A stretch of 41,658 nucleotides of DNA from Candidatus Omnitrophota bacterium (lineage in GTDB: Bacteria; Omnitrophota; Gorgyraeia; Zapsychrales; Fredricksoniimonadaceae), in assembly GCA_023247575.1 (NCBI GenBank), contig JAHFGE010000003.1:24940-66597 (forward strand), given 5' to 3'. The translations under genes were made by a program, and so were the position numbers. The notes under the pieces were generated by a model. It was not told the origin of the DNA and did no database searches. It worked only from the letters and a program-made list of their open reading frames with translations. Of the stretch, positions 22,250 through 41,658 are shown one piece after another; within the stretch, counting starts at the first letter, position 1; each line of letters begins with the position of its first letter.

Positions 22250-22825
22250 ATGACCCGTGATGAGATATATGACCATCTAGCAAAGGTGTATCTTGGCAAA
22301 CGGCAAAATGCCGCCGACCAAAAGAGGAAGAAAACTTTAAACCAATCATGGCTGGTTATCAATATTGCTATTACCACTGCCATTCTAATATCGACGGTAT
22401 ATGGCTTTACGGCTTTTTTAACCCATCGAGTGGTTCTTAAGAATGAAGTTTTCTATTCTCTCAACAATAATCCGATCCGTATTGTTTATGACCTTAATGA
22501 TCCTTTCCCGGCAACAAAAAATTTTTCTATTATCATTCCCCATAAGGACGTTTCTAAATACAATCGACTCAACCTAAGCATTCGTGGCATGAATGAAGCG
22601 TATCCCGGGGTTGTTAAAATAGTCGTCGGTAATCAGCTTAACGAAAAGGCCACCTATTTTATTAGAAATGTGGGAAACAATTGGCAGAAGGTTAGTATCC
22701 CATTGGAAAAATTGAATTTAACCGAGTGGAGTTCCGTGACAGATATTGCTTTTATACTTGAAGCCTGGAATCTAGACTTTAAAAAAGGTACTGTTTTGAT
22801 AGACGATATAAGTTTTTCGAATTAA
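22250..22825 (+). CDS. hypothetical single-pass membrane protein with C-terminal beta-sandwich (CBM/CIA30-like) domain
   Basis: It has a basic N-terminus (KRQNAADQKRKK), a TM segment (WLVINIAITTAILISTVYGFTAFL) and a C-terminus ending ..W..KGTVLIDDISFSN, reminiscent of carbohydrate-binding modules. No firm family can be assigned. Confidence 0.5.
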   Translation: MTRDEIYDHLAKVYLGKRQNAADQKRKKTLNQSWLVINIAITTAILISTVYGFTAFLTHRVVLKNEVFYSLNNNPIRIVYDLNDPFPATKNFSIIIPHKDVSKYNRLNLSIRGMNEAYPGVVKIVVGNQLNEKATYFIRNVGNNWQKVSIPLEKLNLTEWSSVTDIAFILEAWNLDFKKGTVLIDDISFSN

Positions 22826-22840
22826 TAAGAGGCTTTATTT

Positions 22841-23944
22841 ATGAAAATTATTTCCATAGCCAATCAAAAAGGGGGGTGTGGTAAAACAACAACAGCTATT
22901 AACTTAGCCTCCAGCCTTGGGTATCATGGCAAAAAAGTCCTTTTGATTGATCTGGATCCTCAGGCTCATGCCACGCTGGGTCTTAATGTTGATGAGAGCT
23001 ATAGCCTTTACAATGTTATTTCTAAATTAACTCCCCGTAAATTAGAAATTAAAAAAATTATTAAAACAGTTGATAAAAATTTTAATATTGTTCCTTCTAA
23101 CGTTTTGGTTGGCACTCTGGAACAAGAATTAGCCGATGAAATTGGCCGTGAATTGAAATTGGCTGAGATTATGGTGGAAATCAGGGATGACTATGATTAT
23201 ATCCTTATCGATTGCCCTCCCAGCCTAGGTTTTTTGACAGTCAATGCTATCCGTGCCAGCGATCAGGTGATTATTCCGGTGGAAACCAGTCGTTTTTCCC
23301 TGCAGGGGGTGGATCACTTAACAGACATCGTTAATCTTATTCGAGACCGTCTGAATCATCCGGTGCAAGAAAAGATTCTCGTTACCATGTTTGATTCCCG
23401 TTTGCGACATTCTTTTACCATGCTGGCCAAGATGAAAGAAAAATTTGGCAAACTTCTTTATGATACGATTGTGCATGTTAACGTCAAACTTAAAGAGGCA
23501 GCGGTGATGGGTGAGGCCGTTTTAACATATGACAAATACTGTCGCGGTGCGAAGGATTATTTAAGTTTGGCCAGTGAGATTCTTTTATTAGACAGGCCAA
23601 CCATCCCAACCCCGGGGGTTGAGGAGGTTTATAAGCCGACCCAACGTATGCAGGAGCTCGTGGCTCAAGAGACCAGTGAATTCATTGGTTTAGCTACTTT
23701 TGTTTTGAAAGCGCCCCAGGCTCAGTCGGTCTATGTCACCGGTTCCTTTAATGATTGGTCTTTGGATGAAAAATGCCGTATGATGAATAAGAAAGAGGTT
23801 TGGACCTTGAGCCTTCCGCTGAAGGCAGGTGTTTATAAATATCAGTTTATTGTTGATGGCAGGTGGCAGGAAGACCCTGAAAACAAAAAGACCGAACGCA
23901 ATTCCTTTGGAGATATTAATTCTCTTATTGAGGTTAAAGTTTAA
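22841..23944 (+). CDS. ParA/MinD-family ATPase fused to C-terminal CBM48 (AMPK-beta-like glycogen-binding) domain
   Basis: It has a deviant Walker A (IANQKGGCGKTTTAINLA), A' (VLLIDLDPQ) and Walker B (YDYILIDCPPSLG). The C-terminus VYVTGSFNDWS...LPLKAGVYKYQFIVDGRWQEDPEN...GDINSLIEV matches the GSFNxW / YxYKFxVDGxWxxDP hallmark of CBM48. Confidence 0.85.
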   Translation: MKIISIANQKGGCGKTTTAINLASSLGYHGKKVLLIDLDPQAHATLGLNVDESYSLYNVISKLTPRKLEIKKIIKTVDKNFNIVPSNVLVGTLEQELADEIGRELKLAEIMVEIRDDYDYILIDCPPSLGFLTVNAIRASDQVIIPVETSRFSLQGVDHLTDIVNLIRDRLNHPVQEKILVTMFDSRLRHSFTMLAKMKEKFGKLLYDTIVHVNVKLKEAAVMGEAVLTYDKYCRGAKDYLSLASEILLLDRPTIPTPGVEEVYKPTQRMQELVAQETSEFIGLATFVLKAPQAQSVYVTGSFNDWSLDEKCRMMNKKEVWTLSLPLKAGVYKYQFIVDGRWQEDPENKKTERNSFGDINSLIEVKV

Positions 23945-24261
23945 TGCCAGAAAGTTTTTCCAAGCAAGAAATTCTCGACGGTAAAATCTACGCACTTTTG
24001 GCTTATCTTTCCATTCTTTGCATTATTCCGCTGATTGTTAAAAAAGATAATCCTTTTGTTTTAGCTCACGGCAAACAAGGCCTAGTTCTTTTTATTGCCC
24101 AGACAGCGGTGTGGATTCTCAGCATTGTCATTCCGATGGTTTTGGCACCATTGATGTTTATCTTTATGCTCTTGTCTTTTTGCGGGCTTATTGCTGTTGT
24201 TAAGGGAGAATTTGTACGTCTTCCCGTTGTTGCTGATTGGGCGGATAAAATCTCCTTATAA
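23944..24261 (+). CDS. DUF4870-like small membrane protein
   Basis: ALLAYLSILCIIPLIVKKDNPFVLAHGKQGLVLFI fits the DUF4870 pattern (..iPli..kd..fv.fHakQ.l.l). It has 3 TM segments and a TAATG overlap with the ParA gene. Confidence 0.6.
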   Translation: MPESFSKQEILDGKIYALLAYLSILCIIPLIVKKDNPFVLAHGKQGLVLFIAQTAVWILSIVIPMVLAPLMFIFMLLSFCGLIAVVKGEFVRLPVVADWADKISL

Positions 24262-24263
24262 CT

Positions 24264-24668
24264 ATGTCAATCTTACGGAAGTTATCTGATGTCCTTCAAG
24301 AGGTTTTCTGGATAAAACCTTCTAAGAAAAAATTTTTGCGCAGTCGTAGAGCTCCAGCCAAGAAAGCGCCGAAAAAGAAATTCATAAAGCCGCGGCAGGG
24401 ACCGGCCCGTACACTACCTTTCAATTTAGTCAAAGTTGGTGAAATTACCCATTATTTTGATCGGATTAAGGTTTGTGTCATCAAGGTTACCCAGGGTACG
24501 ATATTGATTGGCGATAGATTGACCATCGTGGGGCCTAAAGTGCAGTTTATTCAGAAAGTATGGTCGATGCAAATTGAAAGTGAGGATGTCAAAGTAGCTA
24601 AAAAAGGTCAGCTCATTGGCCTTAAAATAGATAAGCCGGTGCGGGTTGGCGATATGGTTTATAAATAG
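24264..24668 (+). CDS. translation-elongation-factor-like (EF-Tu domain 2 barrel) small protein with highly basic N-terminal extension
   Basis: The C-terminal 80 aa (VGEITHYFDRIKVCVIKVT.G.ILIGDRL.I.G....F.Q.V.SMQIE.EDV..AKKGQLIGLK.D.PVRVGD.VYK) match the small EF-like beta-barrel family. Residues 18-49 (KPSKKKFLRSRRAPAKKAPKKKFIKPRQGPAR) contain 15 K/R out of 32. Confidence 0.65.
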   Translation: MSILRKLSDVLQEVFWIKPSKKKFLRSRRAPAKKAPKKKFIKPRQGPARTLPFNLVKVGEITHYFDRIKVCVIKVTQGTILIGDRLTIVGPKVQFIQKVWSMQIESEDVKVAKKGQLIGLKIDKPVRVGDMVYK

Positions 24669-24671
24669 AAT

Positions 24672-24854
24672 ATGAAAAATGAAAAAGCCCAAAATGTGGT
24701 GGAATATATTTTGCTTGCTGTTGCCGTTATTTTAGTTTTCCTCATTCTTTTAAATCCTCAGGCTGGTCCCGTGAAACAATCCGTCAATGGTATGCTGTAT
24801 AGCACAGTCGACAAACTTCATAACATGACTCAGGAAATTAAAATTACCCCTTAA
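24672..24854 (+). CDS. small Flp/class-III-signal-peptide-like protein
   Basis: MKNEKAQ|NVVEYILLAVAVILVFLILL resembles the Flp-type prepilin motif (G/A-x-x-x-x-EY plus a hydrophobic helix). The protein is 60 aa. No Tad genes lie nearby. Confidence 0.4.
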   Translation: MKNEKAQNVVEYILLAVAVILVFLILLNPQAGPVKQSVNGMLYSTVDKLHNMTQEIKITP

Positions 24855-25276
24855 TGAAAATCAGCGCTTCCCATAAAGACTTGATCCGTCGCTATTTGCT
24901 TTGGGCGTATAAAACAACCAAAGAATCATTTGAACGCATTGAACGCAAGACCACCCAGCTCATGGTGGATGAGTATATATTAAAGGCATTAAAGCAAAAT
25001 ACTCGGTGCGAGGCAGCCGTACAGAAAGACTATCAAAAATTTATTGAGGAATTTGAACAATATATTGCCAGAAAGAAAGAAGATGAAGTTAAGCAGAAAT
25101 TTGCTGATGGTAGTAGAAAAGTTCTTCATCCTCAGTATATTTATTTAGAAAGGCGTTTGTTGGTTATTGAAGGGGCTATAAAATATTTTTTAGGCCCCGA
25201 TACGCTAAAAACGATGAAAGAGCTTTATGAGAAAGAATTTACCAATCGTATTCTCCAAGCTCGGGAACATACATAA
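24854..25276 (+). CDS. hypothetical cytoplasmic helical protein
   Basis: This 140-aa open frame has a TAATG overlap with the upstream gene and a charged, helical composition. I recognise no motif. Confidence 0.5.
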   Translation: MKISASHKDLIRRYLLWAYKTTKESFERIERKTTQLMVDEYILKALKQNTRCEAAVQKDYQKFIEEFEQYIARKKEDEVKQKFADGSRKVLHPQYIYLERRLLVIEGAIKYFLGPDTLKTMKELYEKEFTNRILQAREHT

Positions 25277-25715
25277 GGTACTCCTGCTTATATTGTTTTT
25301 TTTGATTTCGATAGTCTTTCCATCCCATGCCGCCATTGAAATTTATGCCGGAGGCAAGCACTTTGACTCTTTTGAAGATTATCAAGCAAGTCACCGGAGT
25401 AATTTATTAGATCATATGAAGCTTAGCGGCCCTATTCAAGAGAGCCGTCAGGCTCCATTTATTTCAAGGGAAGTTCGCCGAAAGTTAGACAAAATCAGTT
25501 ACAATAGTGGCGTGTATCATGTTATTGTAGACTTCCAACAGAATTGGCAGAATCCTAAACCTCGGTTTATTATGGATGCTCAGGAGCTTCAGGATGTGCT
25601 TCAAGAAACCATAGAAGGCCAACAGGGGCCGGTGCTTTTGATTTCCGACCCTAAGAAAATGCGGATTATGTCCTATTCTTCAAATTCAAATGTTGAGAAT
25701 AAACAGAAGCAGTAA
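25227..25715 (+). CDS. hypothetical secreted protein
   Basis: It has a signal peptide (VLLLILFFLISIVFPSHA|AIEIY) and is 162 aa. It overlaps the upstream ORF by 50 nt, so the start is uncertain. Confidence 0.5.
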   Translation: MRKNLPIVFSKLGNIHKVLLLILFFLISIVFPSHAAIEIYAGGKHFDSFEDYQASHRSNLLDHMKLSGPIQESRQAPFISREVRRKLDKISYNSGVYHVIVDFQQNWQNPKPRFIMDAQELQDVLQETIEGQQGPVLLISDPKKMRIMSYSSNSNVENKQKQ

Positions 25716-25729
25716 TTAAGGAGGGGTAT

Positions 25730-25909
25730 ATGGCTGAAGAAAAGAAGGAAGAAAGTTGTTCAACGAAGGGCGGCTGTGGTTGCTGTAGCGGAGTTAAACA
25801 GCTTATTATTGGGCTGCTTTTAGGGGCGTTGATTTTCGCCTTTGGCTATTTTGTCGCCCAGGGTGGATGTCCTTTCGGTTCTAAAATATGCCCATTGATG
25901 CAGCGTTAA
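25730..25909 (+). CDS. 59-aa Cys-rich small membrane protein (not in ORF track)
   Basis: A strong AAGGAGG RBS at 25717-25723 lies 6 nt before the ATG at 25730. The sequence is MAEEKKEESCSTKGGCGCCSGVKQLIIGLLLGALIFAFGYFVAQGGCPFGSKICPLMQR, with 7 Cys flanking one TM helix. Confidence 0.5.
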   Translation: MAEEKKEESCSTKGGCGCCSGVKQLIIGLLLGALIFAFGYFVAQGGCPFGSKICPLMQR

Positions 25910-27161: not shown

Positions 27162-28697
27162 ATGCGTGCAGGAGTTATTGATATAGGATCATCAACGACT
27201 AAATTGCTTATCGGCGAGCGCCAGGGAGAAGATGTTAGAATTATAGAGTCCCTTAAAAACGCCGTGCCTTTAGGTCGCCATGCCTTTTTAAAACCTCGTA
27301 TCCCACAGACCATCATTAATCAAACCGCCTCTGTCTTACAAAAGTATAAAGAAACGCTTAAAGAATATGATGTTTCTGATGTCACTGTCATCGCCACCAC
27401 CGCTGTACGCGAGGCCCGTAATCAGGACATTTTTTTAGATACAGTTTTACGCAAGACTGGCTTTAAGATCGACGTACTTAATGTTGGTGATGTGGTGTAT
27501 TACATTGATTATTTCCTCTCTCATAAGCTCAAGAAAACCTATCCAGTGGATGAAAAGAATTTATTGATTGCTGAATTGGGCGCAGGAAGTCTTGACATGT
27601 CGGTGATGGAAAAAGGTCTAACCTTGGTCAATATTGGTTTTCCTGTCGGTACCCTTCGTTTATCTCAGTTTATGGAACATTTAGATGGCTCTATGCAGGA
27701 AATCCATGAGGCTACCGAAGAGTATATTGAGAATGAAATCCTGTTCTTGAAAAAGAATAATCCATCCTTGAAAATCGACGATATCATCTTGATCGATGAG
27801 AATTATTCCGTTTTTATTCAGAATATCCTGCCTAACAAACGTCGCGATTCGGATTTTTTTAAATTTAAATCGTCGGAGGCTCAGGAGTTTCTTTTACGTC
27901 TGCGCCAGATGAACTCGGAAGAAATTGCTAGGACCTATAATGTACCGCCTGATGTTGCCACGACCATCGTAGGTTTTGCCATCATTCTCAATACGCTTCT
28001 GAAAATTAATAAGAGCGAATATGTCTATATCCTGGAAGCTTCTTTATCCGAGGCTATCTTAGCCAACCAGCTTTTCCGTCTGGAAACTTCTGAGAAGACC
28101 GATAAGATAAGTCAGTTGGTTTCTGTGGCGCATTTTCTGTGTCGCAAATATGGCATGGATTTAGATCATCTCAAACACGTGGCCACCATAACACAACAAT
28201 TATTCGATGCTTTTAAGGACATTTTAGGCTTGGATCAGCAGGATCGTCTGTATTTAATTTTGGCGTCCTATTTGCACGATTTGGGTATGTTTATCAATAA
28301 TCGCTCTCACCACAAACACAGCGAATACATTATCAGCTCTTCCAATCTGTTTCGCCTGACAGAAGATGAGATTAATATCATTGCTTGCATTGCCCGCTAT
28401 CATCGACGGTCAGCACCTTTAAAGACCCACTTGGTTTATAACTCCTTATCTTCCCAGCAGCAGATTTTAGTCCAGAAACTCAGTGCGCTTTTGCGTATTG
28501 CCAATGCTTTGGATCGTTCGCATAAGCAAAAGGCCAAGGGTTTAGAAGTGAAGTTTAATGCTAGCGGTGACGCCACTATCATTGTTTACACCAACGAGAA
28601 TTTTTTATTGGAAAAAGAAAATTTTTTGGAGAAAAAGGAACTTTTTGAAGAAATTACTGGCAATCAATTGACGTTGGCGGTCAAAAGCCAGCAGTAG
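27162..28697 (+). CDS. ppx: exopolyphosphatase / Ppx-GppA family phosphatase with HD domain
   Basis: It has an actin-like ATPase fold start (MRAGVIDIGSSTTKLLIGE, AELGAGSLD) and a C-terminal HD region (YLHDLGMFIN.RSHHKHSEYII, ARYHRRS). The protein is 511 aa. Confidence 0.88.
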   Translation: MRAGVIDIGSSTTKLLIGERQGEDVRIIESLKNAVPLGRHAFLKPRIPQTIINQTASVLQKYKETLKEYDVSDVTVIATTAVREARNQDIFLDTVLRKTGFKIDVLNVGDVVYYIDYFLSHKLKKTYPVDEKNLLIAELGAGSLDMSVMEKGLTLVNIGFPVGTLRLSQFMEHLDGSMQEIHEATEEYIENEILFLKKNNPSLKIDDIILIDENYSVFIQNILPNKRRDSDFFKFKSSEAQEFLLRLRQMNSEEIARTYNVPPDVATTIVGFAIILNTLLKINKSEYVYILEASLSEAILANQLFRLETSEKTDKISQLVSVAHFLCRKYGMDLDHLKHVATITQQLFDAFKDILGLDQQDRLYLILASYLHDLGMFINNRSHHKHSEYIISSSNLFRLTEDEINIIACIARYHRRSAPLKTHLVYNSLSSQQQILVQKLSALLRIANALDRSHKQKAKGLEVKFNASGDATIIVYTNENFLLEKENFLEKKELFEEITGNQLTLAVKSQQ

Positions 28698-28722
28698 AGA
28701 CGCAGCAATGCTACGTCTGTAC
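28694..28722. repeat. GTAGAGACGCAGC-AAT-GCTACGTCTGTAC palindrome, second copy of the 3977 element
   Basis: It differs from copy 1 at 2 positions in the right arm. It overlaps the ppx stop codon (TAG, 28695-28697). Confidence 0.8.
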
Positions 28723-28735
28723 AACGAAAAGAATT

Positions 28736-31983: not shown

Positions 31984-32178
31984 ATGCATATGAGAACAAC
32001 ATTAATTCTTAACGAAGATATTTATAAAAAAGCAGCGGAGATGACTGGCGTCAAGGAGAAAACTGCCTTAATTCATATGGGACTGCAGACCTTGATTGCA
32101 CATGAGGCTGCCCGTCGTCTGGCTAAATTAGGTGGAAGCGAAAAACAGCTTAAAGCCATCCGTCGCCGTAGGTTTTAA
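31984..32178 (+). CDS. vapB: type II antitoxin, VapB family (DUF2191-like)
   Basis: (MH)MRTTLILNEDIYKKAAEMTGVKEKTALIHMGLQTLIA.EAARRLAKLGGSE is the typical VapB_antitoxin sequence. An alternative start is the ATG at 31990. Confidence 0.8.
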   Translation: MHMRTTLILNEDIYKKAAEMTGVKEKTALIHMGLQTLIAHEAARRLAKLGGSEKQLKAIRRRRF

Positions 32179-32179
32179 T

Positions 32180-32545
32180 ATGATCCTCGTAGACACCTCC
32201 GTGTGGATTTCCCACCTGCGACGGCATAATCAGCAACTGGATAATCTGCTGGGCTTTGAATTCGTTTTTTGCCATCCCTTGATTATTGGAGAGATTTCTT
32301 GTGGCCAGTTGAAAGAGCGGTCTTTAGTGTTGACTTTACTTGAGGAGTTGCCCCAGGCTTCTATTGTGACTCATCAGGAGGCTATGAATTTTATTGAACA
32401 TCATCATCTTATGGGACGCGGCCTGAGCTTTATTGACATACATCTTTTAGCGTCTTGCCAAATAACCAATCTTTCCCTTTGGACGGAAGATAAAATCCTG
32501 CAAAAAGTTGCCCACCAGCTTGGCTTGGCCTTTATTATAGTTTAA
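32180..32545 (+). CDS. vapC: type II toxin VapC, PIN-domain ribonuclease
   Basis: MILVDTSVWISHLR (Asp5), GEIS, FIDIHLLA and WTEDK supply the PIN acidic residues. The ATG at 32180 lies 1 nt after the vapB stop. The ORF-track start 32132 overlaps vapB. Confidence 0.85.
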   Translation: MILVDTSVWISHLRRHNQQLDNLLGFEFVFCHPLIIGEISCGQLKERSLVLTLLEELPQASIVTHQEAMNFIEHHHLMGRGLSFIDIHLLASCQITNLSLWTEDKILQKVAHQLGLAFIIV

Positions 32546-32608: not shown

Positions 32609-32654
32609 CATTTCCTCTTTTATCACTACCTATTGAATGACAAGAGGTTACAAG

Positions 32655-33812
32655 ATGCGCATTGCGTTTTTCTCATGGGAGGCGGTCCATTCCGTTTTTG
32701 TCGGCGGTATTGGTCTTCACGTCACTGAGCTCGCCTGTGCCCTGGAACGCAAAGGCTACGAAGTGCATGTTTTTACGCGCATGGCCCGTCCTGATCATCT
32801 CACCTATGAATGTATCGATGGGGTTCACTATCACCGATGTCCATTTGCCAGCCATCCTGATTTCATAGAAGAAGTGGCCAATATGTGTCGTTCTTTTGTG
32901 GATACTTTTTTGGCTACGGAAGACTATATTGGTGGCTTTGATGTCATTCACGGCCATGACTGGCTGACAGCCTTTTGCCTGGAATGGATTAATAAAGCCC
33001 GACGCCATAAAACCGTTTTTACGATTCATTCCACGGAATATGGTCGCTGTGGAAATAATTTTTTTAATGGCCATTCTCAACATATCCGTCATTTGGAATG
33101 GTTAGGTTCTTACTGTAGCGACCAGGTTATTACGGTATCTAATGCCTTAAAGCATGAGGCTATGGGGATGTACAGTATCCCCGAATCTAAAGTCGATGTT
33201 GTCTATAACGGTGTTAGCTATTCGGATTATAACGGTTGGATTGACCCCGGAGATGTCAAACGTCAGTACGGGATTGGGCTCATGGATCCCATGGTCCTTA
33301 TTGTCGGCCGTATCGTCTACCAAAAGGGGCCGGACTTGCTGGTTAGTGCGATCCCTTCTGTTTTAAGCTTTTATCCCAATGCCAAGTTTGTCTTTGTGGG
33401 TGATGGAGAAATGCGGTGTGAAGTTGAACAACAGGCTCGTAACATGAGGGTGTCTCATGCAACGCGTTTTTTGGGCAAGCAAAGTTCCTGGCGTTTGAAA
33501 GATTTGTTCAAGTCCACGGATTGCGTCTGTGTCCCTAGTCGTAATGAACCTTTTGGCATTGTTATCCTGGAAGCCTGGAGCGCTGGAAAACCAGTTGTGG
33601 CCACCACCAATGGTGGCCCCAATGAGATTATCTGGCACGATGTCAATGGGTTAAAAATTCAAGATAATCCTGAATCCATAGCGTGGGGAATTGGAACACT
33701 CTTTAAAGATTTTGATCACGCTCGCTGGATGGGGCACAATGGCCGAATGACTGTGGAGACGTCTTTTTCGTGGGATGTTATCGCCAATGAAACGCTTCAT
33801 GTTTATAGTTGA
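32655..33812 (+). CDS. glycogen synthase-like glycosyltransferase (GT4/GT5, GT-B fold)
   Basis: It carries MRIAFFSWEAVHSVFVGGIGLHVTELACALERKGYEVHVFT and a C-terminal EPFGIVILEAWSAGKPVVATTNGGPNEII (E-x7-E). The AGAGG RBS lies 7 nt before the ATG at 32655; the ORF track starts at 32637. Confidence 0.8.
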   Translation: MRIAFFSWEAVHSVFVGGIGLHVTELACALERKGYEVHVFTRMARPDHLTYECIDGVHYHRCPFASHPDFIEEVANMCRSFVDTFLATEDYIGGFDVIHGHDWLTAFCLEWINKARRHKTVFTIHSTEYGRCGNNFFNGHSQHIRHLEWLGSYCSDQVITVSNALKHEAMGMYSIPESKVDVVYNGVSYSDYNGWIDPGDVKRQYGIGLMDPMVLIVGRIVYQKGPDLLVSAIPSVLSFYPNAKFVFVGDGEMRCEVEQQARNMRVSHATRFLGKQSSWRLKDLFKSTDCVCVPSRNEPFGIVILEAWSAGKPVVATTNGGPNEIIWHDVNGLKIQDNPESIAWGIGTLFKDFDHARWMGHNGRMTVETSFSWDVIANETLHVYS

Positions 33813-33824
33813 GGTGTATTAATT

Positions 33825-34916
33825 ATGCCACAACACATTTTCGATTCTTCAACCGAACTTCCCGCCTTACAGCCACGTACTCATTGCATCCTTATGCCAC
33901 GAGATCCTAACTGTATTTACGCTTATTGGGATTACACCCAGGAAGATATTGACAATACCCGTAACCAGCTTAAGTTCGAAGGGGCGGATTCTCAACTGGT
34001 CCTTCGCATCTATGATATTACCTTTATTGAGTTTAGCGGTTCAAATACGAATCGTAGCTGGGATCTGGATGTAGGTTTTTCAACTAAAAATTGGTACATT
34101 CATGTATGGCAAGATAATGCGGTTTACTGTGCTGAGCTTGGGCTTCGTCCTTCGACAAACTCAGGACTTGCCCCGAGCGAAGTCGAGGGGCTTCGCTGTG
34201 GCGTAAACCGTTTTATACCATTAGCGCGTTCTAACACTATCCGTACACCACCCAAATCCACCTCGCCAAGGAATGATTTGATTTGGCAGGATATTAAAGC
34301 CCGCAAGGAATCCCAACCCTACATTAGGGAAGATATTAAGGATCTTTCCAAACGTTCCCATAGTTTCAAAAAATTTGGTCAAGCCAAACAGTCCCTCAGA
34401 GAAGGAATCTACTATTTAACCCCCCAGGACATTCGTGCTTATTACAGGGAGATTTTTTCCAGAGTATCAAAAAAGAGTAAGAGTAACATCCGTTCACTTG
34501 AAGATATTCTCAAAGGAAAACTAAGAGGTAAATCCTGGCAAAAGGTCGAGCCTTTAATGACAAACGCTGATTTCATCAGGCGTCATCTTGGCGCCTCGAT
34601 GGAACTTATAGAGAAATGGGGGGCGAGTGAAAATTTATTGAACGCTCAAGAAAAAAATTTTTTCTTTGAAATTTGGACGGAATTGCTTGTCTATGGACGG
34701 ACAGAACCTGATGCAGCGGTTTGGCTCAACCAAAAGGGAATCAAGTTAAATCCAGATGGGACATTTTCATTACGCTATGTTCTTACCAACGGCGAAATTC
34801 CTCTTAAATTCATAGCTCAATCTTCAGACGGTGCCCAACAGCGTCATATCTCTACACGCGTTAAACGCGAAAAGACAGTAAGTTTTCCAAAGATGTTAAA
34901 GGAACCCCATGGCTAA
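33825..34916 (+). CDS. DUF4912 domain protein (conserved neighbour of GH57 branching enzymes)
   Basis: The N-terminus LMPRDPNCIYAYWDYTQEDI and the C-terminus FFFEIWTELLVYGRTEPDAAVWLN..I.LNPDGTF fit my recollection of DUF4912. It overlaps the downstream GH57 gene by 8 nt and contains repeat copy C. Confidence 0.7.
   Translation: MPQHIFDSSTELPALQPRTHCILMPRDPNCIYAYWDYTQEDIDNTRNQLKFEGADSQLVLRIYDITFIEFSGSNTNRSWDLDVGFSTKNWYIHVWQDNAVYCAELGLRPSTNSGLAPSEVEGLRCGVNRFIPLARSNTIRTPPKSTSPRNDLIWQDIKARKESQPYIREDIKDLSKRSHSFKKFGQAKQSLREGIYYLTPQDIRAYYREIFSRVSKKSKSNIRSLEDILKGKLRGKSWQKVEPLMTNADFIRRHLGASMELIEKWGASENLLNAQEKNFFFEIWTELLVYGRTEPDAAVWLNQKGIKLNPDGTFSLRYVLTNGEIPLKFIAQSSDGAQQRHISTRVKREKTVSFPKMLKEPHG
34149..34190. 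repeat. palindromic dispersed repeat, copy C, in frame inside DUF4912 CDS
   Basis: CCTTCGACAAACTCAGGACTTGCCCCGAGCGAAGTCGAGGGG is 42 nt, or 14 codons (PSTNSGLAPSEVEG). Confidence 0.7.
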
Positions 34917-36588
34917 AAAATCTAAAGGGTATCTTGCCCTTGTCCTTCATGCTCATTTGCCCTTTGTCCGCCATCCTGAAGCAAACTATTTTTTGGAAGA
35001 GAACTGGCTATTTGAGGCGGTCACCGAAACTTATATTCCCTTGATCCGGGTGTTTGAATCACTAACCAGAGATGATGTTGATTTTCGTGTGACTATGTCG
35101 ATTAGCCCGACCTTGTCAGCCATGTTCACTGACCCTTTGCTGCAGGACCGCTACGTGTGTCATATCAACAAACTCATTGAGCTGTCTGAGAAAGAATTAG
35201 ACCGCACCTGCCATGAGCCTCATTATCATGGACTAGCGCTTATGTACTATAACCGATTTCTGCAGGCGCGTGATACTTTTATTAATCGTTACCAAAGAAA
35301 TCTTATCCATGCTTTTAAAAGATTTCAGGAATCCGGTTGCTTGGAAATTATTGCCTGTGCCGCCACCCACGGCTTTTTACCGAATTTAAATATTAATAGA
35401 TCCTCCGTTAAGGCCCAAATTGAAATCGGTGTAGAGCAATATCGTAATCATTTTGGCATTGACCCCAAAGGAATGTGGCTCCCTGAATGCGGTTTTTATC
35501 CTGGGCTTGACCGTCTCTTAAAGGAAGCTGGAATTCGATATTTCTTCTGTGATTCCCACGGGATTATGAATGCGGATCCACAACCGCAATTTGGTGTTTA
35601 TGCTCCTGTTTATTGTCCCAGCGGTGTGGCTGCTTTTGGAAGAGATTGGGAATCCTCTAAACAGGTCTGGAGTTCAAAGGAAGGCTATCCAGGAGACCAA
35701 GCCTATCGTGAATACTACCGCGATATAGGCTTTACGCTCGATTTTAATTATATTAAGCCCTACATTCATCCCGATGGTATTCGCATTAATACAGGAATCA
35801 AGTATTGGCGCATCACGGGCAACACGGAATATAAAGAGCCTTACCAACCTCAGTGGGCTAAAGAGAAGGCTGGGGACCATGCTGGAAATTTTATGTTTAA
35901 CCGCCAAAAACAAATCGAACATTTATATCCATCTATGGACCGTCAACCTATCATCGTCGCTCCTTATGATGCGGAATTGTTTGGTCATTGGTGGTTTGAA
36001 GGTCCACAGTGGATTGACTTTTTAGCCAGAAAGGTATTTTACGATCAAGATACTGTTGAAATGACCACGCCTTCTGAGTATTTAAAACAGTATTCCACTA
36101 ATCAAGTAGCCATGCCCAGCCAATCCAGCTGGGGTGACAAAGGTTTTAGCGAGTTTTGGCTAGATGGTTGCAATGACTGGATTTACCCCTATCTTCATGA
36201 AGCCGGACGGCTCATGCAAGAACTGGCGAGAAAGAATTCTGGTTTGATCAAAGGAGATTTTAAGACAAATCCATCTAAATCGGCTTTGCGTTATCGAGCC
36301 ATTAATCAGGCCGCGCGTGAACTTCTTTTGGCCGAGGCTAGCGACTGGCCATTTATTATGAAGGCAGGCACGATGGTGGCTTACGCGCAAAAGCGATTAA
36401 AACAGCATTTACATCGGTTTTACAAATTATTTCATGAATTAGAGAGTGATTGTGTTGACGAAAATTGGCTTAGAGAAATTGAATTTAGAGATAATATATT
36501 TGAGAATACCAATTGTGCCAAATGTTATTTAGAGACAGAAAAGTTCGCCCCACCCAAGCCTAAAAAGAAAACCCTTCAACGGCTATGA
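34909..36588 (+). CDS. GH57-family 1,4-alpha-glucan branching enzyme (DUF1957-containing)
   Basis: It carries GYLALVLHAHLPFVRHPE, GMWLPECGFYPG (nucleophile Glu) and VAPYDAELFGHWWFEG (acid/base Asp). The protein is 559 aa. Confidence 0.85.
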   Translation: MAKKSKGYLALVLHAHLPFVRHPEANYFLEENWLFEAVTETYIPLIRVFESLTRDDVDFRVTMSISPTLSAMFTDPLLQDRYVCHINKLIELSEKELDRTCHEPHYHGLALMYYNRFLQARDTFINRYQRNLIHAFKRFQESGCLEIIACAATHGFLPNLNINRSSVKAQIEIGVEQYRNHFGIDPKGMWLPECGFYPGLDRLLKEAGIRYFFCDSHGIMNADPQPQFGVYAPVYCPSGVAAFGRDWESSKQVWSSKEGYPGDQAYREYYRDIGFTLDFNYIKPYIHPDGIRINTGIKYWRITGNTEYKEPYQPQWAKEKAGDHAGNFMFNRQKQIEHLYPSMDRQPIIVAPYDAELFGHWWFEGPQWIDFLARKVFYDQDTVEMTTPSEYLKQYSTNQVAMPSQSSWGDKGFSEFWLDGCNDWIYPYLHEAGRLMQELARKNSGLIKGDFKTNPSKSALRYRAINQAARELLLAEASDWPFIMKAGTMVAYAQKRLKQHLHRFYKLFHELESDCVDENWLREIEFRDNIFENTNCAKCYLETEKFAPPKPKKKTLQRL

Positions 36589-38072
36589 ACGATATCATCG
36601 AAAATTTACCAAACATATATCCAGAAGAAAATGAATTTAAATCAACAAAAAGCAAGAAACTTTATTCACCTTATTCGAATATTGATTTTAATAAAGTAAA
36701 ATCTGCCTTCGGCATTGCTCTTCATATGCATCAACCAACCATTCCGGCCGGAGGGAGCGATCTTCATACTGCCAATCTAATTTCAAATCTGCAATACATG
36801 TTTGAAAACCAAGGTATCGGCGATCATCATAATGCCTCTGTATTTTTTTGGTGCTACTATCGATTGTCTGAAATGATACCAGACCTTGTTAAGGAAGGTA
36901 AAAGTCCTCGGGTGATGCTGGATTATTCCGGTAATCTTCTGTGGGGTTTACGTCAGATCAATCATGGCTTGGTCATTGAAAATTTAAAAAAAATCACATG
37001 TGATCAGTTTTATTATCCTTATGTCGAATGGCTTGGAACAATGTGGTCGCATGCCGTTGTTACATCGACGCCGATACCAGATATTAAGCTTCATATGTTG
37101 GCGTTTCGTCATCATTTTGCTTCTATTTTTGGCCAAGAAGCTGAGGAACGTCTGAAAGGATTTTCTGCCCCCGAGATGCACTTGCCAATTCATCCGGACG
37201 TTTGCTATGAATATGTCAAAGCATTAAAGGAATGTGGCTACCAGTGGTTAATGGTGCAAGAACACACCATTGAATATCTTAATGGTCGCGGCATCGACAA
37301 TACCCATGTTCCTCATAAGCTGGTGGCCAAGAATTCTCTGGGGCAAATTCAAGAAATCACCGTCCTTATTAAAACTCAAGGATCTGATACAAAACTAGTT
37401 GCTCAGATGCAGCCTTTATCAGAGGCTCAGGGATTTTCCAAACAGCAGTATTGCGGTCATCAGATTCCACCTTTTGTTTGTCAGATCGGTGATGGGGAGA
37501 ATGGGGGTGTCATGATGAATGAGTTTCCCCCTATGTACATTCAATCGATCCGGGGCCTGACGAGGGAAGGGACTGTTGCTCTCAATGGTTCAGAATATTT
37601 GGAATTCTTAGAAGAGGCTGGTATCGATCCTGCTGATTTCGCGCCCGTACAGCCAATTTCCCAGCATCGTATTTGGCAGAAGATTAAAAAGTTTGAACCG
37701 CACGCAGCTGACATGGCCATCCAGGAAATTCAAAAACAAGATTCCTCTTTCAATCTTGATAAAGGTTCATGGACCAATGACCGCAACTGGGTCAAAGGAT
37801 ATGAACATTTGATGGATCCGATTAATCAATTGAGTGTGGCTTTTCATGAAAAATTTGATCAAAAAAATGTAGAAGGGCGTGATAAACCTGCCTGGCCGGC
37901 CGGCAGGTCACGCCCCTACAAGGAAGCCCTGTTATGCCTTCTCCTTTCTCAAACTAGCTGTTTCCGTTATTGGGGGCAGGGGGTGTGGACAGACTACGCT
38001 AAGGAACTTTGTCGACGAGGGATGGAGGCCATTCAAGGAAGAACGTCTGTACCGATGGAATTCTTTATTTAA
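36585..38072 (+). CDS. divergent GH57-like glycoside hydrolase, specificity unknown
   Basis: FGIALHMHQPTIP matches GH57 region I. GFSAPEMHLP and QIGDGENGGVMMNEF sit where GH57 places its catalytic Glu and Asp. It has an ATGA overlap with the branching enzyme gene. Confidence 0.55.
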   Translation: MNDIIENLPNIYPEENEFKSTKSKKLYSPYSNIDFNKVKSAFGIALHMHQPTIPAGGSDLHTANLISNLQYMFENQGIGDHHNASVFFWCYYRLSEMIPDLVKEGKSPRVMLDYSGNLLWGLRQINHGLVIENLKKITCDQFYYPYVEWLGTMWSHAVVTSTPIPDIKLHMLAFRHHFASIFGQEAEERLKGFSAPEMHLPIHPDVCYEYVKALKECGYQWLMVQEHTIEYLNGRGIDNTHVPHKLVAKNSLGQIQEITVLIKTQGSDTKLVAQMQPLSEAQGFSKQQYCGHQIPPFVCQIGDGENGGVMMNEFPPMYIQSIRGLTREGTVALNGSEYLEFLEEAGIDPADFAPVQPISQHRIWQKIKKFEPHAADMAIQEIQKQDSSFNLDKGSWTNDRNWVKGYEHLMDPINQLSVAFHEKFDQKNVEGRDKPAWPAGRSRPYKEALLCLLLSQTSCFRYWGQGVWTDYAKELCRRGMEAIQGRTSVPMEFFI

Positions 38073-38126
38073 ATATAGTGAGGAAAAGTTGAAGATTTTG
38101 AAAGTCAATTTATAATAACTCTGCAT

Positions 38127-40073
38127 ATGAATGATCCAATGACTAAAACCATGCACTCCTTTATTAGTGACCACGACGTCTATCTTTTTAAGGAAGGTAA
38201 TCACTTTAAACTTTATGAAAAATTGGGGGCCCATCCGATGGTGGTTGACGGCCAGCCAGGAGTTCATTTTGCTGTGTGGGCGCCTAATGCTAAACAAGTT
38301 TCAGTGATTGGCAACTTTAATAACTGGAATCGTCATGCACACCCCCTACAGTCTCGCTGGGACTCTTCGGGCATCTGGGAAGGATTTATCCCTGGTTTAA
38401 CAAAAGGAGAAGTTTATAAACATTTTATTGCTTCTAGTCATGGATTTTATCAAGTAGAAAAACAGGATCCGTTTGCCTTTTATAACGAGATAGCTCCTCA
38501 AACAGCTTCTGTAGTCTGGGGTCTAGACTATCAATGGCAGGATGCAAGCTGGATGAAAGAGCGTTATCAGAAAAATAGTTTAAGTGCTCCGTTTTCCATT
38601 TATGAAACGCATATTGGTTCTTGGAAAAGGGTGCCGGAAGATAACCACCGCCCTTTGACCTACCGGGAGTTAGCTGACCAGCTCCCCAAATATTTACAAG
38701 AAATGGGGTTTACCCATGTGGAATTTTTGCCCGTCATGGAACATCCCTTTTACGGGTCCTGGGGCTATCAAACATTGGGATATTTTGCCCCCACCAGCCG
38801 TTACGGGAGTCCTCAGGACTTTATGTATTTAGTTGACTGTCTTCATCAGCATGGCATTGGGGTTATCCTGGACTGGGTGCCATCCCATTTTCCTACCGAC
38901 GAGCATGGTTTAGTCTATTTTGATGGCACTCATCTTTATGAACATGCTGACGCTAAAAAAGGTTATCATCCGGATTGGAAAAGTTCCATTTTTAATTACG
39001 GCAGGAATGAAGTAAAGGAGTTTCTAATTTCTTCGGCTATGTTTTGGATGGACAAATTTCATGTTGATGGTCTTCGGGTTGATGCGGTTGCTTCCATGTT
39101 GTATCTGGATTATTCTCGTGGGCCTCATGAATGGATTCCCAATGAATATGGGGGAAGGGAAAATCTGGAAGCGATTTATTTTTTGCGCCGGCTCAATGAA
39201 GTTATCTATTCCTATTTCCCTGATACCCAGATGATTGCTGAAGAATCTACCGCTTGGGGCGGAGTTTCACGGCCGGCGTTCGTCGGTGGTTTAGGCTTTG
39301 GTATGAAATGGAACATGGGGTGGATGCACGACACTCTCGTTTACATAACCAAAGATCCTATTTATCGTAAATACCACCATAATGAGCTGACATTTTCGTT
39401 TTTATATGCGTACTCGGAGAATTTTTTGTTGTCTCTTTCCCACGACGAGGTTACTCATGGCAAAGGTTCTTTGGTAGGCAAAATGCCAGGGGATCATTGG
39501 CAAAAATTTGCCAATTTGCGTTTATTATTTGGATATATGTTTGCTCATCCAGGTAAGAAGCTCACTTTTATGGGGTCTGAATTCGCTCAAGTGGCTGAAT
39601 GGAGCCATGATCACAGCATTGAATGGCACCTTTTGCAATATGCCCCTCACCAAGGTATGCAAAAATGGTTAAAAGATTTAAATCACCTTTACCGTAGCCA
39701 ACCAGCTTTATATGAGAGAGATTTTACTCCGGAAGGGTTTGAGTGGATTGATTTAAGTGATTGTCAAAACAGCATTATAAGTTTTATTCGTAAATCTGCT
39801 GATAACAAGGATAGGATCATCGTCGTTTGTAATTTTACGCCTATGACATGGAACAACTATCGCATTGGGGTGCCTTATGGAGGATATTGGAAGGAAATTT
39901 TAAATAGTGATGCGGCCATTTATGGCGGTAGTAATCAAGGAAATGGTGGAGGCAAGGAAGCTGAGGATAAATCATGTCACGGCAGGCCATTTTCATTATC
40001 ATTAACCATACCACCATTGGGGATATTATTCTTTAAAAAACAGGAGACTGATTATGAAAACACAAGTCATTGA
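38127..40073 (+). CDS. glgB: GH13 1,4-alpha-glucan branching enzyme
   Basis: It has an N-terminal CBM48 ([22 protein letters not shown]) and the motifs [63 protein letters not shown] and LSHDEV. Confidence 0.95.
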
Positions 40074-40353
40074 AGCGGCAGGAAAAACATGGAGATTTTT
40101 AGGCCAAAACGGCGAGACTAACGTCAGTAAACTTCCCCGGTTGCTCAAAGAAAAAGATCCCGTGGTATTTCAGGCGTTAGGATGGTTAGCCCGTGAGGAT
40201 AAAGTCAACTATTCGACTAAAAATCGTCGTACATTTGTTTCTTTAGTAGAAAGTGAATTACGGGCCTTCAATAGTGTCATGTACCATATGAATACCCAGA
40301 TACAAGATGGCAAGGCTTTAAGTTCCCTTAATGGGCAGAGAGCCAAACAATGA
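40054..40353 (+). CDS. winged helix-turn-helix protein (DUF2582-like)
   Basis: [20 protein letters not shown]...[15 protein letters not shown] fits the DUF2582 wHTH pattern. It overlaps the glgB 3' end by 20 nt. Confidence 0.55.
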
Positions 40354-40379
40354 TTCTTCAATGAAACTGTCGGTAAAGT

Positions 40380-41658
40380 ATGAACAATCGTTTTGTTTGT
40401 ATTCATGGTCACTTTTACCAGCCGCCACGAGAAAATCCCTGGCTAGATGAGGTAGAGCTTCAAGATTCTGCCTTCCCTTACCATGATTGGAATGAACGCA
40501 TTAATTCTGAATGCTATGTGCGTAATGCCACCTCCCGTATCCTAGACGGCAACCATAAAATTGTTGATATTATCAATAATTATTCCAAGATCAGCTTCAA
40601 CTTTGGTCCTACCTTACTTTCTTGGCTAGAGCAAAAAGCACCAGACACTTATGCAGCCATCTTGGAAGCGGATCATTTAAGCCAAAAGAATTTTTCTGGT
40701 CATGGCAGTGCCTTAGCTCAGGTCTATAATCATATGATTATGCCTTTGGCTAATTCACGGGACAAAAGAACTCAGATACTGTGGGGTATTAGGGATTTTG
40801 AATACCGCTTCCGGCGTAAACCTGAAGGGATGTGGTTGCCAGAAACAGCGGTGGATTTAGAGACCCTTGATATGATGGCCGAATATGGTATCAAATTTAC
40901 TGTTTTAGCTCCTCATCAAGCTAAAGAAGTCAAAAAGATCCAACAGGATCTCCTTTGGCATGATGTCCAGGGCCAAAAGGTGGACCCTAAAGTGGCCTAT
41001 GTGTGCCACCTTCCTTCCGGACGGAAAATGAACATTTTCTTCTACCATAGCCCGATTGCCCGAGGGGTTGCGTTTGAAGGACTTTTAAATAATGGTGAAT
41101 ATTTTGCTAAGACACTCGTTCGTGAATTTGATAACAATAACACCAATGCCCAGCTCGTGCATATTGCAACCGACGGAGAAACTTATGGACATCACCATAA
41201 ATTTGGCGATATGGCTTTGGCGTATGGGCTACACTATATTCAGACCCATCAGCTGGCTCAATTGACGGTTTATGGAGAATTTCTAGATAAATTTCCCCCT
41301 CAGCAGGAGGTAACCATTGTAGAAAATTCTTCTTGGAGCTGTGTGCACGGCATAGAACGCTGGCGGTCTGATTGCGGTTGCTTTATCGGTGGACAGGTGG
41401 GATGGAAGCAACAATGGCGCCAGCCGCTTCGTAAAGCTTTAGATTGGCTCAGAGATCAACTTGTAGAAATCTATCAACAGCAAATCAGTGCATTCACTGC
41501 CGACGGCTGGGCGTTACGCAATCATTATATTGAACTTATCTTGGACCGTAGTCCACAGAACGTGAACCAGTTTATTAAAAACCATATTCCCCATCCGCTG
41601 GATGACGATCACCGCATTAAGTTATTGAAACTTTTGGAAATGCAGTATAACGCTCTTT
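40380..41658 (+). CDS. GH57 family glycoside hydrolase (DUF3536-type), 3'-truncated by window edge
   Basis: It is not in the ORF track because no stop is reached. I translated it by hand: MNNRFVCIHGHFYQPPRENPWLDEV.., GMWLPETAVD, HIATDGETYGHHHKFGD, SSWSCVHGIERWRSDCGC. The frame stays open to base 41658. Confidence 0.85.
   Translation, partial: MNNRFVCIHGHFYQPPRENPWLDEVELQDSAFPYHDWNERINSECYVRNATSRILDGNHKIVDIINNYSKISFNFGPTLLSWLEQKAPDTYAAILEADHLSQKNFSGHGSALAQVYNHMIMPLANSRDKRTQILWGIRDFEYRFRRKPEGMWLPETAVDLETLDMMAEYGIKFTVLAPHQAKEVKKIQQDLLWHDVQGQKVDPKVAYVCHLPSGRKMNIFFYHSPIARGVAFEGLLNNGEYFAKTLVREFDNNNTNAQLVHIATDGETYGHHHKFGDMALAYGLHYIQTHQLAQLTVYGEFLDKFPPQQEVTIVENSSWSCVHGIERWRSDCGCFIGGQVGWKQQWRQPLRKALDWLRDQLVEIYQQQISAFTADGWALRNHYIELILDRSPQNVNQFIKNHIPHPLDDDHRIKLLKLLEMQYNAL

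Follow-up and report, generated by a model that had tools for sequence, protein, structure and literature searches.

Introduction

Can an ATPase of the ParA type act on stored glycogen? This question is raised by a gene at 22841..23944 (+) of a 41,658-nucleotide (nt) stretch of DNA from Candidatus Omnitrophota (contig JAHFGE010000003.1, positions 24,940-66,597), referred to below as the window. The gene encodes an intact protein of 367 amino acids (aa), here called ParA-CBM, in which a Soj/ParA-type ATPase is joined through a linker to a beta-sandwich of the AMPK-beta/CBM48 type, where CBM stands for carbohydrate-binding module. ParA/MinD ATPases are the general means by which bacteria place chromosomes and plasmids, carboxysomes, chemoreceptor arrays, flagella, and division sites. 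The commonest bacterial carbon store is glycogen, for which no positioning or partitioning system is known. A preliminary description of the window, made from the letters and a list of open reading frames (ORFs) without database searches, had suggested from domain content and context that the protein may space or segregate glycogen granules.

The explanation favored here is an ATP-gated ParA-CBM dimer that would link glycogen particles with the nucleoid and that a partner peptide would reset, leading to glycogen positioning or partition. It builds on computed features, namely the architecture, the catalytic motifs, the conservation of sugar, DNA, and pocket residues, a separate clade, peptide-bearing partners, and operon linkage to GH57 genes. 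The explanation is tentative and falls somewhat short of probable, because every functional step in it (dimerization, binding to DNA and to glucan, stimulation of the ATPase, and the outcome in the cell) is inferred.

Sequence Material and Searches

Profile searches used Pfam with gathering cut-offs and curated NCBIfam models with their own cut-offs. Sequences were compared with the PDB by phmmer, structures were predicted by AlphaFold2, and folds were compared by Foldseek with target-normalised template modelling (TM) scores. Relatives were sought in one genome per GTDB species, which yielded at least 580 confirmed relatives. The window and the best 80 of these relatives' loci formed the neighborhood sample, in which ORFs were called (1411 in total) and clustered; a six-frame scan covered 1.24 Mb. 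ORF clusters are designated c1, c2, c4, c5, c13, c14, and c33, related loci are designated L001 and so on, and +1 denotes the gene next downstream of the ParA-CBM gene. Conservation was counted over 72 relatives translated from other genomes, with some counts made over 73 sequences.

Domain Architecture of ParA-CBM

The ATPase domain covers residues 1-250 (22841..23590, +) and was assigned from Pfam, PDB phmmer, Foldseek, its motifs, and mapping onto Myxococcus xanthus ParA. The reading frame and motifs quoted in the preliminary description were all recovered, and QKGGCGKT (K10, K15), LLIDLDPQ, and ILIDCPPSLG are located in the 367-aa ORF. Pfam placed AAA_31 on residues 1-174 (E=1e-55) and also matched CbiA (E=2.3e-17), both above cut-off. 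The best PDB match of the first 255 residues was M. xanthus ParA (8RAY, E=1.6e-49), followed by TtSoj of Thermus thermophilus and HpSoj of Helicobacter pylori (E ~2e-38), with McdA (E=6e-14) and MinD (E ~1e-14) far behind. Foldseek likewise ranked Soj/ParA structures, including 8RAY, 1wcv, and 6iub, at the top for the predicted model (TM 0.80-0.87). No curated NCBIfam model reached its cut-off on ParA-CBM; the best was ParA_partition with 111 bits against 180, and the RepA and SopA models were far under theirs.

The ATPase domain is followed by a proline-rich flexible linker (residues 251-267, DRPTIPTPGVEEVYKPT) and a short low-confidence helix (residues 268-281), which together occupy 23591..23686 (+) in the AlphaFold2 model. 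This model, built on a 71-sequence alignment, has a mean predicted local distance difference test score (pLDDT) of 84.4. The score is ~90 in both the ParA fold (residues 1-250) and the beta-sandwich (residues 283-365), ~56-63 in the helix, and below 50 at residues 255-263 of the linker, which is predicted to be disordered. Linker length ranges from 21 to 114 aa among the 72 relatives, with a median of 46.

The C-terminal carbohydrate-binding beta-sandwich comprises residues 283-367 (23687..23944, +, including the stop codon) and carries the string VYVTGSFNDW...SLIEV. Its assignment as an AMPK-beta/CBM48-type domain, which had first been made from the sequence alone, held up in Pfam, PDB alignment, conservation, and AlphaFold2. 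AMPK1_CBM matched residues 293-366 (E=2.5e-16; 60.1 bits against a cut-off of 26.8), and CBM_48 also exceeded its cut-off (28.3 bits against 22.4). The last 99 aa found their best PDB matches in the CBMs of AMPK beta1/beta2 (1z0n, 2f15, 4y0g; E ~1e-9), and then in the CBM48s of GH13 pullulanase, GlgB, and amylase in the PDB and profile searches. The CBM48 is cytoplasmic, and the protein has no signal peptide.

Conserved Sites

The catalytic residues of the ATPase are preserved throughout the family. In the deviant Walker A motif K10-GGCGK15-T, residues K10, G11, G12, G14, K15, and T16 are invariant (~71-73 relatives), as are D37/D39 (switch I and the catalytic Asp) and D124 of Walker B. The catalytic D60 of M. 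xanthus ParA falls on the invariant D39, which validates the mapping between the two proteins. The R238E variant of M. xanthus ParA lacks non-specific DNA binding (PMC12462528). R238 corresponds to K216 of ParA-CBM, with K or R in 62 of 73 sequences, and the Arg of the Soj R189 type corresponds to R187, which is kept in 71 of 72. On this alignment, ParA-CBM retains equivalents of the DNA-binding basic residues.

The pocket that receives the ParB peptide in M. xanthus ParA is formed by V116, L150, L152, L155, L187, and L192 (PMC12462528). These residues map to Q95, L129, F131, V134, L166, and L171, and five of the six positions are hydrophobic throughout the ParA-CBM family. Three residues are particular to the family: C13 (72/72) and H43 (71/72) as invariants, and Q95, which is near-invariant (69/73).

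The C-terminal domain was aligned residue by residue to rat AMPK beta1 (1z0n, 2f15, 4y0g). In AMPK beta1, W100, K126, W133, L146, and N150 are the sugar-contact residues reported by Polekhina et al. 2005. Both tryptophans are present as W306 (W100) and W342 (W133) and are Trp in 72/72 relatives, and G147 is matched by G357 with the same frequency. L146 corresponds to F356 (F or Y in 66/72), and N150 corresponds to N360 (N or D in 70/72). The position of K126 is occupied by Q335 in the window protein; it is R or K in 60 of the 72 relatives (39 R, 21 K) and Q in the other 12. K333 sits two residues before Q335 on the same strand. Of the Trp/Lys contacts that were to be looked for, both Trp are present, and the Lys position holds Q in the window protein and a basic residue in most relatives. 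Conservation of the stacking Trp residues and contact positions in 72 relatives indicates that selection maintains the sugar-stacking platform across phyla.

Distribution of the Family

Full-length ParA-CBM occurs in at least 580 species genomes, a count that comes from the GTDB species scan and not from the census of the CBM alone. Among the best 80 of these relatives, nearly all align over residues 1-365. By record labels in the same 80, identity is 40-76% in Omnitrophota, 33-41% in Planctomycetota classes, and 37-41% in Myxococcota, 'delta proteobacterium', and Thermodesulfobacteriota, and further relatives are labelled Margulisiibacteriota and Eisenbacteria. A protein database holds >120 clusters of the same architecture from Candidatus Omnitrophica/Omnitrophota with 69-92% identity. 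Names are purely generic, either 'AAA family ATPase' or 'chromosome partitioning protein', and a search seeded from Myxococcota again returned just generically named proteins of the same architecture from metagenome-assembled genomes (MAGs). No curated family covers the protein. The expectation that no system of this kind had been described held, as full-text literature searches on combinations of ParA, CBM48, and glycogen found neither a ParA/MinD ATPase with a CBM48 nor a ParA-type positioning of glycogen. Among 72,556 plasmids, no fusion of ParA with a CBM was found; a single plasmid matched the CBM region, and that protein is not a ParA.

In a neighbor-joining tree with two outgroups, which is a limited test, all 73 ATPase domains of the fusion proteins group in a single clade that excludes both M. 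xanthus ParA and TtSoj. They are 37-43% identical to these two proteins, which are 52% identical to each other. The tree agrees with the private invariants C13, H43, and Q95, and on both lines the fusion ATPases are a distinct ParA clade.

Two further observations concern the records themselves. Several MAGs labelled 'uncultured Planctomycetales' (L002, L011, L012, L015, L020, L022, L034, and others) are probably mislabelled; they encode proteins 50-76% identical to the window protein in an Omnitrophota-type operon. In a census of the CBM alone over 1.84 billion representatives, proteins carrying 3-18 CBM copies in tandem dominated the ranking. Tandem arrays of AMPK-beta-like CBMs occur in thousands of bacterial proteins, many of ~480 aa with 4 copies, and giant arrays reach up to 18 copies (e.g., P0361 with 1812 aa and P0368 with 6207 aa, among proteins P0361-P0510).

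A ParB-like Peptide on the Partner Proteins

In ParB, the motif for binding ParA has hydrophobic L11, L15, L18, and I19 around a central R13 (PMC12462528). Outside the core Omnitrophota, the gene next downstream of ParA-CBM starts with KLGRGLEDISHLFLS or close variants, and in Myxococcota with PRELSDVLHYFLP or PRDLGDVLHYFIP. The core of this peptide, L-G-R-G-L-x-D-I, reproduces ParB's ParA-binding motif (L-x-R/K-x-L-x-x-hydrophobic). Under the strict motif, 10 of 1411 ORFs matched, and all ten were at the +1 position. The relaxed six-frame scan gave 23 matches, 17 of which lie at the start of the +1 gene, including the window; since L082 is the same place as L071, these correspond to 16 distinct loci. 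Their labels are Planctomycetota, Myxococcota, Eisenbacteria, Thermodesulfobacteriota, 'delta proteobacterium', and Omnitrophota. In the window, c2 starts with MSILRKLSDVLQEVFW, and its N-terminal peptide MSILRKLSDVLQEVFWIK resembles the ParB-like partner motif and is among the 17 matches.

The bodies that follow the peptide differ. In several non-Omnitrophota lineages, the body is a degenerate ParA/MinD-like domain, which passes Pfam cut-offs in L055 and L058. Planctomycetota and Myxococcota also have longer partner proteins with no Pfam match, the Margulisiibacteriota locus L057 has an AAA_22 ATPase, and the window c2 has a poly-basic tract with a small barrel. The degenerate proteins lack a Walker A motif and stand directly after ParA-CBM (the +1 genes of L050, L055, L058, and L078; also L044, L066, L069, L072, L075, and L082:11304-12251). 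In Planctomycetota, these pseudo-ParA partners reach 386-480 aa and are longer by an additional C-terminal region with no Pfam match.

The preliminary description had regarded the cargo adaptor as fused to the motor. The fusion of a cargo-type CBM stands, whereas a system free of separate adaptors does not, as conserved separate partners were found. It follows that the CBM probably provides binding to the cargo or surface and that control of the ATPase comes from a separate protein.

Linkage to Alpha-Glucan Genes

The link to alpha-glucan metabolism is stronger than could be seen from the window, as related loci carry a GH57 gene in the same operon. GH57 of the c5 type was detected in 27 loci with operon-like gaps and lies two genes upstream of ParA-CBM where the gene order was resolved. 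Four other loci have glycogen genes nearby: glgC lies near ParA-CBM in L041 and L048, and a GT5-DUF4912-GH57 branching-enzyme cluster lies near it in L050 and L058.

In the window itself, the glycogen genes, which make up a full set, are at least 8.7 kb from ParA-CBM and are therefore outside its operon. By Pfam, glgC is at 387-1592, and a separate alpha-glucan gene cluster spans 32637..41657 (+). The cluster comprises a GT4/GT5 synthase (from 32637), a DUF4912 gene (from 33825), a GH57 branching enzyme with BE_C (34909-36588), a 495-aa ORF with no Pfam match at E <0.01 (36585-38072), GH13 GlgB (from 38127), and a truncated GH57+DUF3536 gene (40380-end), all on the + strand. Pfam also identified ppx (from 27162) and ppk1 (from 28736), with ppx-ppk1 spanning 27162-30781. 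This inventory agrees with the earlier one in glgC, a synthase, two types of branching enzyme, and ppx/ppk, and departs from it in GH57, of which Pfam confirms two of the three genes. A PIN-domain toxin gene (32132-32545) is located between the genes for ROK glucokinase and glycogen synthase.

Operon and Neighboring Genes

In core Omnitrophota, the gene order is an Alginate_exp-family outer-membrane barrel, GH57 (519 aa, cytoplasmic), c1, ParA-CBM, c4, and c2, with operon-like gaps (medians 54, 21, 1, and 12 nt). In the window, rimO-pgsA-pgpA-BaxI stands upstream in place of the barrel and GH57. The ATG of ParA-CBM is preceded by an AAGAGG ribosome-binding site, its stop codon is overlapped by the ATG of c4 (TAATG), and c2 starts 2 nt past the c4 stop. 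An AT-rich gap of 139 nt lies before c1, and a terminator-like hairpin lies at 25820-25845. Because neither the promoter scan nor the terminator scan exceeded shuffled expectation, the operon limits are drawn from gene packing. A 13.7-kb ENA contig with the same operon has a BrnT toxin gene upstream of rimO.

The upstream neighbor c1 (22250..22825, +) is a 191-aa type II membrane protein and a candidate membrane-anchored partner of the ATPase. It adjoins ParA-CBM in 37 loci (median gap 21 nt), and the related c13 type does so in 8 more. Its 297 homologues are all from Omnitrophota and are named hypothetical or CIA30 family. The protein consists of an N-terminal amphipathic peptide (residues 3-18, RDEIYDHLAKVYLGKR), a poly-Lys stretch, a transmembrane helix (~residues 33-58), and a CBM11-like beta-sandwich (residues 76-190). 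AlphaFold2 modelled it with a pLDDT of 75.9, and the top Foldseek matches were CBM11, CBM28, CBM8, and CBM16. By the positive-inside rule, c1 is predicted to be N-in/C-out, which would place its peptide on the cytoplasmic side and its CBM-like domain on the periplasmic side. The N-terminal peptide is its most conserved part (consensus kkeiYeHLAkiYLdassk.kkk), with R3, E5, I6, Y7, L10, A11, V13, Y14, L15, G16, and K17 invariant in a 45-sequence alignment. In more distant Omnitrophota, the peptide of the upstream c13 gene reads qe.LAd.Yf.

Downstream, c4 (23944..24261, +) encodes a small multi-pass membrane protein of 105 aa and directly follows ParA-CBM in 25 loci (median gap 1 nt). Its match to PF09685 is weak by hmmscan (18.7 bits, below cut-off), and the same protein is on record with PF09685. 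This family is named DUF4870 in the hmmscan copy and MamF_MmsF, for magnetosome membrane proteins, in newer Pfam.

The next gene, c2 (24264..24668, +), encodes a 134-aa protein that is the candidate ATPase-activating partner in the window and has relatives in 32 loci. It has a poly-basic tract (residues 18-50) and a small beta-barrel (~residues 55-134), for which Pfam gave just weak matches to EF-Tu domain 2 and U32_C. The PDB sequence search returned no match for c1 or c2. In the window, L001, L002, and L081, c2 and its relatives carry a Lys/Pro/Ala-rich tract of 40-90 aa before the barrel that is similar to histone H1/AlgP. In the window and closest relatives, ppx-ppk1 lies ~2.5 kb downstream of c2, and pstSCAB-phoU lies upstream in L081. 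The tract and this context hint at a link to polyphosphate or nucleoid binding.

Three small ORFs of 60, 140, and 162 aa (24672..25715, +) are packed behind c2 and may belong to the operon. They are conserved just in the closest relatives, and no Pfam family exceeded its cut-off on them. The first is a 60-aa Flp-pilin-like ORF (24672-24854), and pseudopilin-like genes with an N_methyl motif and DUF7305 occur at 10645-12861. Of the clusters behind c2, c14 is found in 7 loci, and c33 is shared by the window and its closest relatives L001-L003. In the Myxococcota loci L082 and L083, a MerR-family gene is always directly upstream of ParA-CBM; downstream of it are an extracytoplasmic function sigma factor gene (~2 kb), phosphoglucomutase (~5 kb), and two ArsA-like ATPases (~9 kb). 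Elsewhere in the window, the TTG-start ORF listed for kdpB (14602-16983) overlaps the end of kdpA by ~295 nt, and the true start is therefore probably a later codon.

Known Systems Rejected as Identities

The absence of parB and parS nearby, reported in the preliminary description, extends to the related loci. No ParB-box motif was found in the 1411 ORFs of the window and 80 loci, and neighbors and partners carried no ParB Pfam domain. The parS consensus TGTTNCACGTGAAACA had two matches at 3 mismatches against 1.14 expected, neither of them near the ParA-CBM gene, and no notable repeats surround the gene. Membership of ParABS was rejected for lack of parB and parS and for the ParA_partition score (111 against 180). 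Plasmid partition was rejected on the plasmid search, in which the CBM region matched a single plasmid protein that is not a ParA.

Four other identities were considered. McdA was rejected on its E-value (6e-14), the lack of carboxysome or RuBisCO genes in the window, and the lack of a McdB-type partner. MinD was rejected on the C-terminal beta-sandwich, the lack of minC/minE in the window, and the score of TIGR01968 (59 against 213). A bacterial tyrosine kinase (BY-kinase) was rejected on the lack of a C-terminal Tyr cluster and the eps_fam score (45 against 108), and BcsQ was rejected on its own model (75 against 158).

Proposed Mechanism

In the favored explanation, ParA-CBM would be a cytoplasmic molecular switch of the ParA/Soj type, with glycogen as its cargo or surface. 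ATP-bound subunits would pair as a sandwich dimer, and this dimer would contact nucleoid DNA non-specifically through a basic patch of R187 and K216. The two CBM48 modules, on flexible linkers of ~20-110 aa, would hold the surface of an alpha-glucan particle by avidity. The N-terminal amphipathic peptide of a separate partner would then enter the hydrophobic cleft at the dimer interface; in the window, this could be the peptide of c2 (MSILRKLSDVLQEVFW) and/or that of the membrane-anchored c1. ATP hydrolysis would be triggered and the dimer released. Repeated cycles would tether glycogen particles, spread them over the nucleoid, and partition them at division. The outcome would be analogous to that of McdAB for carboxysomes, with the difference that the ATPase has its own cargo-binding function. 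Besides the nucleoid, the membrane may form part of the reference frame.

Several findings weigh against this explanation. The conserved Omnitrophota neighbors c1 and c4 are membrane proteins and fit it least well; a role tied to the membrane suits them at least as well as one tied to the nucleoid. Most c2 proteins of Omnitrophota lack the N-terminal peptide, which is confined to the subclade of the window, and begin at once with poly-Lys; in those genomes, the c1 peptide is the better candidate. The logic of a Brownian ratchet, in which the activator sits on the cargo, does not apply automatically to an ATPase that itself binds the cargo. Part of the GH57 linkage is a single inherited synteny block, so the associations number about 5-6 independent cases and not 31. 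The window protein has the minority state, Q335, at the K126 equivalent. A type IX secretion system (T9SS) plug model matched the C-terminal domain weakly, and AMPK1_CBM-like domains are also present in non-glycogen proteins. Finally, all carriers found are uncultured MAGs.

Alternative Explanations

The alternative that survives best, although unlikely, is a MinD-like switch for which glycogen is the surface. Dimerization would pair two weak CBM48s, and the protein would reside on glycogen only in its ATP state. Effectors would be drawn to it there or kept away, for example the pseudo-ParA partner, the membrane protein c1, or glycogen enzymes such as GH57. Energy charge would thereby be coupled to glycogen turnover, or granules would be anchored at the membrane. 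The position of the surface-binding element, C-terminal to the ATPase core as in the MinD targeting helix, is consistent with such a switch, and so are the two membrane proteins translationally packed with the ParA-CBM gene and the cytoplasmic GH57 within the operon. Partners that vary by lineage in all but the N-terminal peptide (pseudo-ParA, AAA_22, transmembrane plus CBM-like, poly-basic barrel) resemble those of a recruitment hub. However, the core matches Soj/ParA (E=1e-38 to 1e-49) far more closely than MinD (E ~1e-14), and it keeps both DNA-binding basic residues, which a purely glycogen-referenced switch would not need.

A second possibility, which is improbable, is that ParA-CBM segregates the chromosome or organizes the nucleoid, and that the CBM48 ties partition or division-site choice (as in MipZ and PomZ) to glycogen as an anchor or energy readout. 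The Soj-like core, which shares ~37% identity with both M. xanthus ParA and the Soj of T. thermophilus, would agree with this, as would the retained DNA-binding residues and ParB-type peptide pocket. Against it, neither parB nor parS occurs within 10 kb across the window and 80 loci, the partners have no ParB domains, and the fusions form a single clade apart from canonical ParAs with the invariants C13, H43, and Q95. Myxococcota possess an essential canonical ParABS (PMC12462528); therefore, the fusion in that phylum is an extra paralogue beside it.

The favored glycogen-nucleoid explanation must also be compared with an envelope role, to which little probability is given. Here, the ATPase would assemble or localize a trans-envelope alpha-glucan system made of c1 and the AlgE-like barrel, as an organizer of envelope polysaccharide or a membrane complex of the BcsQ or split BY-kinase/transmembrane-activator type. 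ParA/MinD-family ATPases of such a kind exist, BcsQ is among the fold matches, the CBM11-like domain of c1 is predicted to face the periplasm, and the Omnitrophota order places the Alginate_exp-family barrel, GH57, c1, ParA-CBM, and c4 together. However, the operon contains no synthase, flippase, Wza, or polysaccharide co-polymerase (PCP) genes, and the barrel and GH57 are absent upstream in the window. Outside Omnitrophota, c1 and the barrel are absent and the ParA-CBM family persists. The protein has no C-terminal Tyr cluster, the BY-kinase and BcsQ models are far below their cut-offs, and the CBM48 is cytoplasmic with no signal peptide.

That the CBM48-like fold has ceased to bind glucan and serves as a protein-protein or other ligand module, with a spurious glycogen link, is highly improbable: the presence of AMPK1_CBM-like domains, frequently as tandem arrays, in many bacterial proteins whose role is not known, the weak T9SS plug match, and the Q at the K126 equivalent would fit, but both stacking Trp are invariant, the contact positions are conserved across phyla, the best matches are glycogen-binding AMPK beta CBMs, and the genomic linkage to alpha-glucan enzymes is recurrent.

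Comparison with Known Systems

McdA of the McdA/McdB system is similarly an orphan ParA-type ATPase that serves a large non-DNA cytoplasmic body without parB/parS and is controlled by a partner, and its fold was recovered by the ParA-CBM model (Foldseek E ~1e-17, TM 0.8). In contrast to ParA-CBM, which has a cargo-binding CBM48 within the ATPase, McdA reaches its cargo only via McdB, and its sequence is distant (E=6e-14, compared with 1e-38 to 1e-49 for Soj/ParA). The ParA-CBM partner also differs, as it has a ParB-like peptide and often a degenerate ParA-like domain, and the context includes no carboxysome genes.

The ParA/Soj-ParB/Spo0J-parS system has the closest ATPase core and shares the catalytic motifs, DNA-binding equivalents, peptide pocket, and partner peptide motif. 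ParA-CBM differs from it in having neither parS nor a ParB with its helix-turn-helix and CTPase domains, in its extra linker and CBM48, and in its separate clade with C13, H43, and Q95. MinD, with its partner MinE, has a C-terminal surface-binding appendage that gains avidity on ATP-dependent dimerization and is reset by a partner peptide, as proposed for ParA-CBM. The appendage of ParA-CBM is a folded carbohydrate-binding module and not an amphipathic helix, and minC/minE are absent.

The CBM/CBM48 of AMPK beta belongs to the same fold family by sequence, and the stacking Trp, Gly, and Asn of its binding loop are conserved. In ParA-CBM, the module is joined to a P-loop ATPase rather than to a kinase scaffold or GH13 enzyme, and the K126 equivalent is Q in the window and R/K in most relatives. 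Storage granules are known to be coupled to the nucleoid by PhaM/PhaF-type proteins, which distribute polyhydroxybutyrate/polyhydroxyalkanoate granules to daughter cells. The concept is alike, but these proteins are not ATPases, bind polyester granules, and have no sequence relationship to ParA-CBM. In PomXYZ of M. xanthus, a nucleoid ParA/MinD ATPase is likewise activated by N-terminal peptides of non-ParB partners; PMC13170346 and PMC7993993 describe a two-activator system. Its cargo is the complex at the division site, PomZ lacks a CBM, and the partner sequences are unrelated.

Biological Significance

The ATPase family and its general mechanism are established; not so the proposed cargo, the fusion architecture, or the set of partners. 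In its broadest form, the glycogen-nucleoid explanation would make ParA-CBM a widespread ATP-driven machine that organizes glycogen in space and passes it on to daughter cells, with carriers among at least 580 species genomes of at least five phyla. It would be the first system to position a polysaccharide storage body actively. In this design, which has not been seen before, the ParA would carry the cargo module, and the separate partner would provide only a ParB-like activating peptide. Several lineages would use a pseudo-ParA as this partner, Omnitrophota a membrane-anchored CBM-like protein, and the subclade of the window a poly-basic barrel protein. This form is somewhat less likely than not. 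In a stranger variant, a ParA/MinD switch could cycle with the polysaccharide granule as its matrix, in place of DNA or membrane.

If true, the ParA/MinD family would gain both a new class of cargo and a new architecture, in which the adaptor is fused to the motor and the activator is separate. Several hundred genes labelled 'AAA family ATPase' or 'chromosome partitioning protein', annotations that are probably misleading, would receive a testable role, and the ParA-CBM family makes the active organization of glycogen in bacteria directly testable.

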